In this document: one piece after another, positions 3,607 through 15,233 of the stretch
Layout of the letters: each line of letters opens with the position of its first letter
How positions within the stretch are numbered: the first letter of the stretch is position 1
DNA from: a virus
Virus genome (UHGV): UHGV-0114647
DNA: 17,667 nucleotides
Direction: 5' to 3' (one strand)
Program-made: the position numbers and the translations under genes
Notes under the pieces: generated by a model
Databases searched by the model: none
The model's input: the letters and a program-made list of their open reading frames with translations, nothing else
Told to the model about the DNA's origin: nothing

Positions 3607-4091
3607 TGAACTACATGGAAATACGAAAATTCGATACAGCAAACGGTGAAGGTGCTCGTGTTAGTCTTTTTGTAGCTGGCTGCAAACACCACTGTGAAGG
3701 TTGCTTTAACAGGGAGTCTTGGAAGTTTAATGCTGGTAAAGAGTTTACTTATGCAAACCTTTATGGCATTATGCAGATAATGAATGATGATGGAATCAGT
3801 GGTCTATCTATCCTTGGTGGAGAACCACTTGATGATAGGAATGTTCAGACAGTAACAAATATCTGTAAGCGGATTAAAACCGTATACCCAGACAAATCTA
3901 TATGGTTATGGACAGGTTACCAGCTACATGAAAAAATTAACTTAGAAGTGATGAAATATGTTGACGTGGTAATAGATGGTAAGTATGATGCTTCTAAACC
4001 AACACACAAACCATATCGTGGGTCTGACAATCAAATACTTTGGAGAAAAGAATATGGCTGGCAAGGCGACTGTCAATGGAGAGCAGAATAG
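3606..4091 (+). CDS. nrdG: anaerobic ribonucleotide reductase activating protein NrdG (radical SAM)
   Basis: N-terminus MNYMEIRKFDTANGEGARVSLFVAGCKHHCEGCFN contains the Cx3Cx2C radical-SAM cluster motif. Size of 161 aa and placement near nrdD fit. Confidence 0.85.
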   Translation: MNYMEIRKFDTANGEGARVSLFVAGCKHHCEGCFNRESWKFNAGKEFTYANLYGIMQIMNDDGISGLSILGGEPLDDRNVQTVTNICKRIKTVYPDKSIWLWTGYQLHEKINLEVMKYVDVVIDGKYDASKPTHKPYRGSDNQILWRKEYGWQGDCQWRAE

Positions 4092-4116
4092 AGCGGGTTT
4101 TCGAAGAGGTGAGATT

Positions 4117-4374
4117 ATGACCATCTCTTGCAATAGCTCACTGTTTGGAGAGTATAAGGTTAACCCTAACACTCTTGAAGATTGGCAGAAGTACACAAAG
4201 AGTCTTTTTGATACAACCGGACTAGACGCTTTAAAAAAGCTTGCAGAAGTTGAAGTTTTCAGAGTAAAATATAAGTCACACATGTCAAACTTCTACGCAA
4301 CAAATATTGTTGAAGATGACAAAGTGGTTTCCGTAACAGAAGAAGAACTGAAACAGTTCTGTATTAAACTTTAA
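4117..4374 (+). CDS. hypothetical protein (85 aa; alternative start at 4054)
   Basis: ATG at 4117 with GAGGTGA Shine-Dalgarno at 4106-4112. The same frame is open from 3976 and has another ATG at 4054 with GGAG upstream, which would overlap the nrdG 3' end. Confidence 0.45.
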   Translation: MTISCNSSLFGEYKVNPNTLEDWQKYTKSLFDTTGLDALKKLAEVEVFRVKYKSHMSNFYATNIVEDDKVVSVTEEELKQFCIKL

Positions 4375-12819: not shown

Positions 12820-12850
12820 TGTCTGCATGTTTAACAAAATAGGAGTGCAA

Positions 12851-13399
12851 ATGAAGAAATTTGTTTTAGGTTTGTGCTTATTCTTTACAGCACATTTAGC
12901 TACAGCGTCTGACTGTCCAGAGCTTACAATCAGTCAGAAAGTTAATATGTTAAAAGCATATAACTATGGAGAAGGACAGATGGGAAAAGGTTGGGGAATC
13001 CCTTTAGCAGCTATAGCCTTACAAGAGTCACAATTAGGTGTCATGTTAGAAAATAAAAAGACTCATGATTATGGTGTTTTCCAAAATCACTTGAAGACTG
13101 TTGTAAAGCGTAACAAGGTATCTCCAAAGGTTGCTAAGAAGAAGCTAGTAAGCGACTTCCATTACTCAGCGAAAGAGGCTCATAAGGAGCTATTATTCTG
13201 GACTAAGGTTCATGGTAACCCAGATGGAAAGTACTCTATGAAGCGTGTCCTAGCTTCTTATAATGCTGGTTACAAATACAAGATTCCAAAGGCTAGACAA
13301 TACTCTCAAGATGTGTACAATAACATGAAACTGCTGGCTCAATGTGAGTTTGCAACAAACATTAAAAAGGTAAAATATGAGCGAATCAAAACAATTTGA
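12851..13399 (+). CDS. secreted lytic transglycosylase-like protein (SLT domain) with N-terminal signal peptide
   Basis: ATG at 12851. Signal peptide MKKFVLGLCLFFTAHLATA. SLT-like motifs AAIALQESQLG (catalytic Glu-Ser), DYGVFQ and ASYNAGYKY. Confidence 0.55.
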   Translation: MKKFVLGLCLFFTAHLATASDCPELTISQKVNMLKAYNYGEGQMGKGWGIPLAAIALQESQLGVMLENKKTHDYGVFQNHLKTVVKRNKVSPKVAKKKLVSDFHYSAKEAHKELLFWTKVHGNPDGKYSMKRVLASYNAGYKYKIPKARQYSQDVYNNMKLLAQCEFATNIKKVKYERIKTI

Positions 13400-14072
13400 C
13401 ATGGTTCTGTGTCATGCTTATGATATCAAGCCACTTGATTTAGATATCAGTTCTGCAAGTTGGCCAGATATTGCTAAAGCTGACTTTGCAGATACAGCAA
13501 GAAATGTTGTGTGTAGCTTTGAAGACTTCCACTCAACAAAGACACAGATTCCTTGTCAGGATTTGCTAACAGGTAAAACTGTATATGTTGGTCGTAATAG
13601 TCTTATCTTGGTTGCAAAGAACTTGGAAGAAAAACGTAAAATGGTCTTAGCAGACATTGATGGTGTTCTTACAAGCTTTGACAAGAAACTTAATGCAACT
13701 CTGTTAGATGACGGCACTTACTCACAGTATACTAACTTGGTAGACTCTCGCAGAGCTAAACCAACATATGTTTTTAACATCCTGTGTGGTATATCAAGAA
13801 ATGCTGATATAGGATTCTTAACTGCTCGTGGAGAATCACAAAGAGTTGTCACACATCTTTTCCTGAATGAGAATGTAGACAGTGATTTCCTACTGTTTAT
13901 GCGTGGATTTGGTGACAATGAGATTAGTGCAGAAAGTTTAAAAGTTCGTATGCTTCAGTCTTGCATTCTACCTTACTATGATGTAGTATGCTTTATAGAA
14001 GATACAGTGAAGAACGTGGCAAAGGTTGAAAGAATCTTACCACACATCAAAACAATGCTTGTTAAAAACTGA
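13377..14072 (+). CDS. hypothetical protein with HAD-like motif I (possible phosphatase/nucleotidase)
   Basis: MVLADIDGVLTSF resembles HAD motif I (hhhhDxDx[TV]); later GFLTARGE could be motif II. No P-loop, so not a Pnk kinase domain. Confidence 0.45.
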   Translation: MSESKQFDMVLCHAYDIKPLDLDISSASWPDIAKADFADTARNVVCSFEDFHSTKTQIPCQDLLTGKTVYVGRNSLILVAKNLEEKRKMVLADIDGVLTSFDKKLNATLLDDGTYSQYTNLVDSRRAKPTYVFNILCGISRNADIGFLTARGESQRVVTHLFLNENVDSDFLLFMRGFGDNEISAESLKVRMLQSCILPYYDVVCFIEDTVKNVAKVERILPHIKTMLVKN

Positions 14073-14557: not shown

Positions 14558-14585
14558 AGAGGCTCCTTCGGGAGCCTTTTCATTT
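14558..14585 (+). terminator. rho-independent terminator
   Basis: GGCTCC-TTCG-GGAGCC hairpin followed by TTTTCATTT. Confidence 0.6.
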
Positions 14586-14601
14586 ATGTAAGGGGTATAT
14601 T

Positions 14602-14703
14602 ATGATTAAAGTTATCAAGATAATACCATCATTGGTAATGCTCATAGTAGGGGTAGGTATCATACTTATGCTTTGCCCTGCTTTTTGGCCTTTTATCTTA
14701 TAA
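14602..14703 (+). CDS. putative micro-protein, single TM helix (33 aa)
   Basis: Below the ORF-track cutoff. AAGGGG at 14590-14595, ATG at 14602. Translates to MIKVIKIIPSLVMLIVGVGIILMLCPAFWPFIL. Confidence 0.3.
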   Translation: MIKVIKIIPSLVMLIVGVGIILMLCPAFWPFIL

Positions 14704-14722
14704 TAGTCTAGGAGATTGACAA

Positions 14723-15070
14723 ATGACATTCAAAGAATTTTGTCAAGCAGCTTTTGTAATCATGTTTTTGTTAGGTGTAGGTGCTTGGGGTGGCTATACT
14801 TACAAGACTAGCCAAGTTAACGAGAAAGAGTTGACTAATCAGAAGCTTGTTAGTGTTGCTAAAGATGCTTATCAAGAAGGTTTATCAAATCTTAGCTCCA
14901 ATTACAAAAATGATTTGAAAGATGTGCTTGCTAAAAACAAACACACCAAAGAGGTATTGAACTATGAAAAAACTAAAACAGTCTTTATTAATGATTGTGC
15001 TACTGAGCCTTATGTCAGGGTGTTCAACGAACAAAGTGAACAGTACCTTCAAAAACTCCCAAGTAAGTGA
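14723..15070 (+). CDS. i-spanin-like protein (N-terminal TM anchor, periplasmic domain)
   Basis: AGGAGA RBS at 14709-14714. N-terminal TM helix AAFVIMFLLGVGAWGGY followed by a charged, coiled-coil-like periplasmic region. 115 aa, with a lipoprotein gene embedded in another frame at its 3' end. Confidence 0.5.
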   Translation: MTFKEFCQAAFVIMFLLGVGAWGGYTYKTSQVNEKELTNQKLVSVAKDAYQEGLSNLSSNYKNDLKDVLAKNKHTKEVLNYEKTKTVFINDCATEPYVRVFNEQSEQYLQKLPSK

Positions 15071-15233
15071 GAGTGACAAGTACACTCAAGAAGAAGCACG
15101 ATATGAAGTTAAAAGCACTAAAGGCAGAGATATTGCAAGTGCTCTTGAGTTTTATCGTGATGGCTACTATGAATGTACTATTAAGGCAAACAATTTAATT
15201 GATATGATTTTGTTAGGGAATAAACAGCAATGA
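14964..15233 (+). CDS. o-spanin-like outer-membrane lipoprotein
   Basis: AAAGAGGT RBS at 14948-14955. Lipoprotein signal MKKLKQSLLMIVLLSLMSGC with Ser at +2; mature part has a C-terminal Cys. Overlaps the preceding gene by about 107 nt in a different frame. Confidence 0.5.
   Translation: MKKLKQSLLMIVLLSLMSGCSTNKVNSTFKNSQVSESDKYTQEEARYEVKSTKGRDIASALEFYRDGYYECTIKANNLIDMILLGNKQQ

Follow-up and report, generated by a model that had tools for sequence, protein, structure and literature searches.

The question raised by this locus is whether two genes that share part of their DNA, one encoding a small membrane protein and the other a lipoprotein, form a two-component spanin, and whether both of the frames that overlap are real. 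The DNA analysed (17,667 nucleotides of the virus genome UHGV-0114647, in the following the window) was recognized by DNA comparison with phage records as that of a Mooglevirus-like (Felix O1-like) myophage. The region of the pair was 99.0% identical to Shigella phage ESh19 over 2.3 kb, and 84-99% identical at the DNA level to Mooglevirus and related Ounavirinae, among which are the Citrobacter phages KMM4 and KMM2, the Shigella phages ESh19 and Sf13-Sf19 and Escherichia phage 3HA14. In total, 258 phage records matched the region, the best matches being Mooglevirus and Felixounavirus, and many of these carry the labels 'i-spanin' and 'o-spanin' at this position. We use the same two names here for the predicted products. 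The genes and their translation signals were located as follows:

14710..14714, plus strand: Shine-Dalgarno sequence AGGAG, 8 nt before the i-spanin ATG, read from the sequence
14723..15070, plus strand: predicted i-spanin gene, 115 aa, ATG start (open reading frame; PHROG 1152; annotated Ounavirinae homologues)
14951..14955, plus strand: Shine-Dalgarno sequence GAGGT, 8 nt before the o-spanin ATG and within the i-spanin coding sequence
14964..15233, plus strand: predicted o-spanin gene, 89-aa prolipoprotein, ATG start (open reading frame; annotated homologues; PHROG matches)

The supplement of the spanin census by Kongari et al. likewise gives AGGAG for Felix01, JH2 and Moogle, and the equivalent of GAGGT for EC6 (PMC6139136 supplement).

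The 115-aa protein matched PHROG 1152, annotated as 'Rz-like spanin', over residues 1-115 (E=5.1e-38), and its identity to the annotated i-spanins of the Ounavirinae was 76-100%. Two features of the protein are relevant to its proposed role:

14741..14803, plus strand: predicted N-terminal transmembrane segment of the i-spanin, approximately residues 7-27, CQAAFVIMFLLGVGAWGGYTY (Kyte-Doolittle)
14996..14998, plus strand: codon of i-spanin Cys92, the sole periplasmic Cys (alignments of relatives)

The 19-residue Kyte-Doolittle maximum of the protein is 1.72 and lies at residues 6-24, no other hydrophobic segments were found in it, and the 88 residues beyond the transmembrane segment are polar and for 30% charged. 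The original prediction had described precisely such a protein, with an N-terminal transmembrane segment and a charged domain. The profile is that of a type II topology, with one N-terminal transmembrane segment and, as we infer for the orientation, the bulk of the protein in the periplasm. Cys92 sits in the conserved C-terminal motif F-x-N-x-C-x4-Y-x3-FN and was invariant in the alignments as well as in the distant homologues. AlphaFold2 placed helices at residues 39-57, 65-79, 82-91 and 95-111, with low confidence (mean pLDDT 55). This agrees with the Jpred prediction of 66% helix for the periplasmic domain of the Felix01 and Moogle proteins (PMC6139136 supplement) and is suggestive of a mostly helical periplasmic domain. 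With Pepcoil, one coiled coil was predicted in the i-spanin of Moogle and none in that of Felix01 (PMC6139136 supplement). The AlphaFold2 models of both proteins were built on shallow alignments (15-16 sequences at 55-99% identity; mean pLDDT 55-56) and served for hints on secondary structure only.

The second gene starts 241 nt downstream of the i-spanin start, in the +1 frame relative to it. Its position inside the 3' end of the first gene, in another frame and behind a ribosome binding site of its own, is therefore as had been proposed. At the other end, its stop codon TGA and the start codon of the following gene share nucleotides (ATGA at 15230-15233), which leaves no gap. The encoded protein matched PHROG 4180 (1.9e-47) and PHROG 2425 (2.1e-10), both labelled 'unknown function', and annotated o-spanins are 78-100% identical to it. 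Two features stand out:

15009..15023, plus strand: lipobox L-M-S-G-C of the o-spanin, with the Cys20 codon at 15021-15023 (PROSITE PS51257)
15123..15224, plus strand: predicted C-terminal amphipathic helix of the o-spanin, residues 54-87 (AlphaFold2, pLDDT 62-73)

The N-terminus fits the PROSITE lipoprotein rule PS51257 (MIVLLSLMSGC), with Cys20 as the lipobox residue and three Lys among the first seven residues. As implemented, the rule consists of six non-charged residues and the pattern [LIVM..]2-x-[AGS]-C, together with Lys or Arg within the first seven residues. Cys20 is hence the predicted site of lipidation and of cleavage by signal peptidase II, and Ser21 at position +2, a compatible residue and not Asp, predicts sorting to the outer membrane. 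The signal sequence, the lipobox Cys and the Ser at +2 that had been read from the letters were all recovered in this way. Counting Cys20, the mature protein comprises 70 aa. It had been described as not Pro-rich and in fact contains zero Pro; one more Cys is present (Cys71). In the low-confidence AlphaFold2 model, the signal helix is followed by disorder from residue 19 to 49 and then by the helix at 54-87, which predicts a mature o-spanin with a disordered linker of ~30 residues and, behind it, a helix of ~34 residues. The helix holds the conserved motif ALEFYRDGYYEC and Cys71 (codon 15174-15176), and residues E62, D66, C71, N76 and L78 are invariant across distant homologues.

The pair is already known: its spanin family was catalogued in 2018, and numerous genomes of the Felix O1 and Moogle type carry the annotation. 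Kongari et al. (2018; PMC6139136; BMC Bioinformatics 19:326) grouped Felix01, Moogle, JH2, wV8 and others in one spanin family, and the 'JH2' family has the overlapped architecture (PMC6139136). For Felix01, Moogle and JH2 the supplement lists the class 'ovl', an i-spanin of 348 nt and 115 aa, an o-spanin of 89 aa (70 mature) and an overlap of 107 nt, whereby the i-spanin family (n=15) includes phiEco32, KBNP1711 and NJ01 and the o-spanin family has n=11 (PMC6139136). The sequences of Felix01, Moogle and EC6 given there visibly match the window pair, and the same two genes are named i-spanin and o-spanin in the records of 3HA14, Sf14, Mijalis and many more phages. Families were delimited in the census at an identity of at least 40% over at least 40% of the length (Kongari 2018). 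Both window proteins lie above that threshold, the i-spanin with 76% (wV8) and 91% (Mijalis) identity and the o-spanin with 80% and 84%. The family entries, i.e. Felix01 p014 with its overlapped partner, the i-spanin and o-spanin of Moogle, and PHROG 1152 for the i-spanin, share with the window pair the lengths of 115 and 89 aa, the 107-nt overlap, the positions of the ribosome binding sites and the type of lipobox (xMSGC-ST). The neighbourhood is alike as well, with the polynucleotide kinase gene, the 154-aa gene and the terminator preceding the spanins. The differences are restricted to minor substitutions and an insertion of ~120 nt in the window between the terminator and the i-spanin. Moreover, at least one periplasmic Cys is available for intermolecular disulfides in 507 of 528 spanin systems (PMC6139136), and the window pair has C92 in the i-spanin and C71 in the o-spanin. 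The two genes overlap, both being on the plus strand. By analogy with the catalogued family, it is highly probable that the pair, as predicted, serves a Felix O1/Moogle-like myophage as its two-component spanin. The overlapped Rz/Rz1-type reading of the original prediction is borne out by the annotations of the relatives, by the match to PHROG 1152 (E=5e-38) and by the layout recorded in the census (PMC6139136), and the interpretation as a whole, which had been appropriately hedged, is supported.

The genomic context of the pair is bounded by one further element:

14558..14587, plus strand: Rho-independent terminator with a 9-bp GC-rich stem, a TTCG loop and a T-run, which ends the upstream gene

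This terminator delimits the spanin region on its 5' side, and the records of wV8 and Mijalis list the same element under that name. The genes before it are, in order, rIIA, rIIB, a 190-aa protein (a putative lysin in some records), polynucleotide kinase and a 154-aa protein; behind it follow the overlapped pair, small ORFs and a macro-domain phosphatase. Thus, the neighbours of the pair are early-type genes (rIIA/rIIB, polynucleotide kinase, macro-domain phosphatase), and a holin or endolysin gene is not adjacent. The lysis genes of Moogle (endolysin, i-spanin, o-spanin and putative holin) are scattered round the genome, and the same holds for Felix O1-like phages in general (PMC4319497), and this dispersal accounts for the absence of holin and endolysin genes beside the pair.

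A scan of viral contigs with the o-spanin alignment yielded 58 loci, 53 of which were resolved by script and five of which were read by eye. In the latter five the lipoprotein lacks an ATG start; one of them (L038) was checked. All Felix/Moogle-type (Ounavirinae) loci (29 of 29) have the pair of 115 and 89 aa with the 107-nt overlap. The distant loci, which belong to Erwinia Kolesnikvirus, to phiEco32-like phages of ~77 kb and to a set of contigs of ~30 kb, keep an overlapped pair of transmembrane protein and lipoprotein, with overlaps of 116-191 nt and an identity of 28-40%. A lipobox Cys followed by Ser was present in 58 of 58 loci, in a Cys-Ser-(Thr/Met) pattern, and an upstream overlapping transmembrane ORF in all 53 resolved loci, the true partner in locus L066 being its second listed ORF. 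Within these 53 loci the inner-membrane partner has one periplasmic Cys (two in one locus) and the lipoprotein one or two. The Cys of the inner-membrane partner lies in K-P-V-F-x-N-V-C-A-S/T-D-D-Y-x-R-x-F-N, and every lipoprotein sequence that was inspected contains the helix motif A-L-E-x-Y-R/Q-D-x-Y-x-x-C-x4-N-x-L. The C-terminal motifs and the Cys residues were kept in Erwinia phage FIfi106, in Bas93 and other phiEco32-like phages and in the ~30-kb contigs. The distant lipoproteins contain 3-9 prolines and two Cys; the form with zero prolines and a single Cys is specific to the Felix/Moogle clade. The joint conservation of the C-terminal ends of both proteins fits the spanin model, in which it is these ends that meet in the periplasm.

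A comparison with the spanins of lambda and T4 revealed a likeness of architecture and not of detectable sequence. Scans of both proteins against Pfam and NCBIfam gave nothing at or near threshold, and profile searches against the sequences of the PDB gave nothing significant, the best match being an unrelated lipoprotein (E=0.044). Like lambda Rz/Rz1, the window pair combines a type II inner-membrane protein with an outer-membrane lipoprotein, uses two frames of the same DNA to encode them and has periplasmic Cys available for homotypic disulfides. However, no sequence similarity to the lambda proteins was found (no Pfam family matches either window protein), and the lambda genes are fully embedded, whereas those of the window are overlapped. 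In addition, lambda Rz1 is described as unstructured and as having a mutationally sensitive penta-proline stretch (PMC6139136), whereas the mature o-spanin of the window, with its 70 aa, lacks Pro entirely and has a predicted C-terminal helix.

A comparison with PseT.3/PseT.2 of T4 had been recommended in the original prediction. The T4 proteins measure 117 and 99 aa versus 115 and 89 aa in the window, neither o-spanin has a proline-rich region, both are predicted to end in a helix, and in either phage the pair lies in an early-type region near a polynucleotide kinase gene, the order being pseT.3, pseT.2, pseT.1, pseT in T4 and kinase, 154-aa gene, spanins in the window. Size, the lack of a proline-rich region and linkage to the kinase are thus alike, but homology to the T4 proteins was not detected with hhalign, which returned probabilities of 0.4% (i-spanin) and 6.5% (o-spanin). 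The PHROGs also differ (739/812 in T4; 1152 and 4180/2425 in the window). The T4 genes are moreover classed as 'separated', with a 4-nt junction, whereas those of the window overlap, and in T4 the i-spanin lacks a periplasmic Cys and the o-spanin has two, against one in each window protein. According to the census, PseT.2 has no proline-rich stretch and ends in a predicted helix, and considerable structure is predicted for several further o-spanins (PMC6139136). Therefore, the length of the mature lipoprotein and its scarcity of Pro do not disqualify it as an o-spanin.

If the paradigms of lambda Rz/Rz1 and T4 PseT.3/PseT.2, as summarised in the census (PMC6139136), apply to this pair, the following sequence of events may be envisaged. 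The i-spanin would insert into the inner membrane in an N-in/C-out orientation. The o-spanin would be lipidated at Cys20, cut by signal peptidase II and sorted by the Lol system to the outer membrane, where it would reside in the inner leaflet. Across the periplasm, the conserved C-termini of both partners would then bind to each other, presumably through the F88-N90-C92-Y97-F101-N102 motif of the i-spanin and the helix around E62-D66-C71-N76-L78 of the o-spanin, whereby C92 and C71 may each form homotypic intermolecular disulfides. After removal of the peptidoglycan mesh by the holin and the endolysin, whose genes lie elsewhere in the genome, the spanin complexes would collapse and, in doing so, fuse the inner and outer membranes, which would complete lysis.

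Several observations weigh against the spanin reading. These are the lack of a Pfam, NCBIfam or PDB relative, the early-type neighbours, the low pLDDT of the models, the 'unknown function' label of the o-spanin PHROGs, the lack of homology to T4, the absence of a Pepcoil coiled coil for Felix01 and, finally, the absence from the mature o-spanin of a proline-rich region such as that of lambda Rz1, where mutations have shown it to be critical. A functional test of the Felix O1-type spanin family was not found in the literature searched, and further studies have been called necessary (PMC8300805). In view of this, the pair might instead constitute an envelope complex without a role in lysis, which would act in superinfection exclusion or receptor masking in the manner of T5 Llp or the lambdoid Cor proteins and would be expressed early, alongside the neighbouring rII and polynucleotide kinase genes. 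The location among early-type genes and outside a lysis cassette would suit such a complex, as would the label of the o-spanin PHROGs and the lack, in that literature, of experimental evidence for a lysis function of the family. However, the T4 spanin genes too are found in an early region, beside pseT, and the PADLOC defence models gave no match. The pair is furthermore co-conserved in its overlapped form in Felix O1-like myophages, phiEco32-like phages, Kolesnikvirus and the ~30-kb contigs, and such a spread over unrelated types of phage is more easily reconciled with a core role in lysis than with host-specific exclusion. In fact, the census records the pair as the two-component spanin of Felix01, Moogle and JH2 (PMC6139136), and one conserved periplasmic Cys per partner matches the disulfide rule for spanins. 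We therefore regard an envelope complex of this kind as very improbable and retain the assignment as a spanin.

The stretch of DNA that the two genes share is the following:

14964..15070, plus strand: dual-coding overlap of 107 nt (codon-position diversity)

It codes for the last 35 residues of the i-spanin and, in the other frame, for the signal peptide and the first mature residues of the o-spanin. The original prediction had taken the openness of both frames through the overlap as strong evidence that both genes are real. The conclusion held, but the argument did not. In the +1 frame of the genes of the window a stop occurs at 6.2% of the codons, which gives a probability of ~0.11 for 35 open codons, and 20 of the 304 +1-frame runs in the window are at least 35 codons long. 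The open overlap by itself was therefore rejected as proof of dual coding. A more specific property is the lipobox: the o-spanin ORF is the sole ORF in the six frames of the 17.7-kb window that complies with PS51257, where shuffled sequences lead one to expect 0.25.

Codon-position diversity was determined over the 511-nt unit of Felix O1-like and Moogle-like phages, for which 28 distinct sequences were compared. In the region that belongs to the i-spanin only, diversity in the i-spanin frame was 0.083, 0.058 and 0.232 at positions 1, 2 and 3, respectively. In the 160 nt that belong to the o-spanin only, the corresponding values in the o-spanin frame were 0.087, 0.055 and 0.325. In the overlap, read in the i-spanin frame, they were 0.063, 0.050 and 0.064. 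Outside the overlap each gene thus has an excess of third-position variation in its own frame, whereas within it variation is low at all three codon positions. Stops were absent from both frames in all 28 sequences. Such a pattern implies that both frames are under selection, and on this comparative evidence, which we consider decisive, both overlapping frames are real and subject to purifying selection. The notion that only the 115-aa gene is real and the 89-aa lipoprotein frame is open by chance could draw on the fact that an open +1 run of 35 codons is not rare here and on the omission of the lipoprotein from the annotations of ESh19 and pEC-M719-6WT.1, but it is extremely unlikely and was ruled out by the codon-position diversity, i.e. 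the third-position excess in the lipoprotein-only stretch and the drop in third-position diversity of the i-spanin frame from 0.232 upstream to 0.064 in the overlap, in line with the lack of stops, the conservation of the protein, lipobox included, down to relatives at 28-40% identity, its status as the only lipobox ORF of the window and the gapless ATGA junction.

The insertion of ~120 nt that sets the window apart from most of its relatives contains one additional reading frame:

14602-14703: hydrophobic ORF of 33 aa with a single transmembrane segment, between the terminator and the i-spanin start

The insertion with this ORF was present in 2 of 50,697 phage records, and both tblastn and an exact-sequence look-up of the ORF returned the same two phage records only. 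Considering its position between the terminator and the i-spanin start, the ORF is probably co-transcribed with the spanins. One may speculate that it encodes a new moron peptide that modulates the spanins or the timing of lysis and, separately, that the proline-free o-spanin and the C-terminus of the i-spanin associate as a helix-helix zipper, but these readings are improbable. If true, the zipper formed by the o-spanin of this clade would represent a mechanism unlike that of the proline-rich lambda Rz1.

The value of the analysis as a discovery is small, and its practical value lies in the correction of annotation in public records. In ESh19, the closest deposited genome, the i-spanin is listed as 'hypothetical', the o-spanin was missed and a spurious ORF of 31 aa is given in another frame. 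The start of the o-spanin in the RefSeq record of Sf14 lies downstream of its signal peptide. The start annotated in Bas93 is likewise too late for the signal peptide, and the record of FIfi106 is without an o-spanin annotation. With respect to the biology of the family, the proline-free o-spanin with its predicted helical end would provide a useful contrast to lambda Rz1 for studies of membrane fusion by spanins.

The way in which the spanin genes are treated in the records of ESh19 (the closest deposited genome), pEC-M719-6WT.1, Sf14, Bas93 and FIfi106 is a matter of annotation errors. The loci concerned, each in its own coordinates unless stated, are:

ESh19 (L007, ON528729.1) 1384-1859: spanin region, equivalent to window 14723-15198
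Sf14 (L002, NC_042075.1) 3988-4254: misannotated o-spanin
Bas93 (L006) 1796-1969: misannotated o-spanin
FIfi106 (L005) about 1430-1705: unannotated o-spanin

In the records of ESh19 and pEC-M719-6WT.1 the i-spanin is named 'hypothetical' and the o-spanin is absent, a short ORF in another frame having been called in its place. In the Sf14 RefSeq entry an internal codon is taken as the o-spanin start, which leaves 64 aa and cuts off most of the signal peptide; the Bas93 record annotates merely a 57-aa fragment, and that of FIfi106 leaves the gene wholly unannotated.

The start of the gene is also at issue in a group of distant o-spanin homologues on contigs of 27-59 kb (L038-L041 and L044, about 1440-1760). 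Their frame contains a good lipobox (LLMTMSGC-ST) and no upstream ATG at a suitable distance, and, with a start at the sole in-frame Met residues, the signal peptide would lack a positively charged N-region, which together suggests that translation begins at a non-canonical start codon.

Upstream of the spanins (14723-15233), the window encodes:

12827-13399, +: 190-aa protein, PHROG 600 ('unknown function')
13377-14072: polynucleotide kinase
14602-14703, +: 33-aa ORF (MIKVIKIIPSLVMLIVGVGIILMLCPAFWPFIL), RBS AAGGGG

The first of these genes lies between rIIB and the kinase gene, overlapping the latter by 23 nt. Its product matches the Pfam SLT transglycosylase family below threshold (E=0.002, 18.1 bits versus a cut-off of 21.3) and is labelled 'putative lysin' in some relatives (lysozyme-like domain, IPR023346). 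A role as a second muralytic protein, separate from the known Felix O1 endolysin, is possible.

Spanin genes are found near a polynucleotide kinase gene in T4 as well (L068, 3003-4782); the order is kinase, 154-aa gene and spanins in the window, and pseT.3, pseT.2, pseT.1 and pseT in T4. Sequence homology between the two spanin pairs was not detectable. The proximity could be coincidence or, in view of rIIA and rIIB being adjacent in the window too, a relic of a common early-region organisation.

The 33-aa ORF is extremely hydrophobic (KD19 maximum 2.81) and is harboured by an insertion of ~120 nt that parts the terminator from the i-spanin RBS; the spacing there is only ~52 nt in all other Ounavirinae examined. 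Among 50,697 phage records just 2 contain the ORF, those of ESh19 and pEC-M719-6WT.1. The latter aligns with the window over 178 nt around the ORF at 92.8% nucleotide identity, yet the peptide is 100% identical, and thus all nucleotide differences inside the ORF are synonymous. The ORF probably represents a real small membrane protein gained as a moron, and it likely shares a transcript with the spanin genes. In pEC-M719-6WT.1, the sole carrier besides ESh19 and the window, a 50-aa acidic ORF is located between the 33-aa ORF and the i-spanin gene:

L008 (pEC-M719-6WT.1) 1384-1536: 50-aa acidic ORF (MKYKVYIVIQGVEIAIDIYSDTDSDDAYELEEELRMKAKLLFPHAECCYL)

This extra ORF shows that small-gene insertion has a hotspot at the site directly 5' of the spanins.
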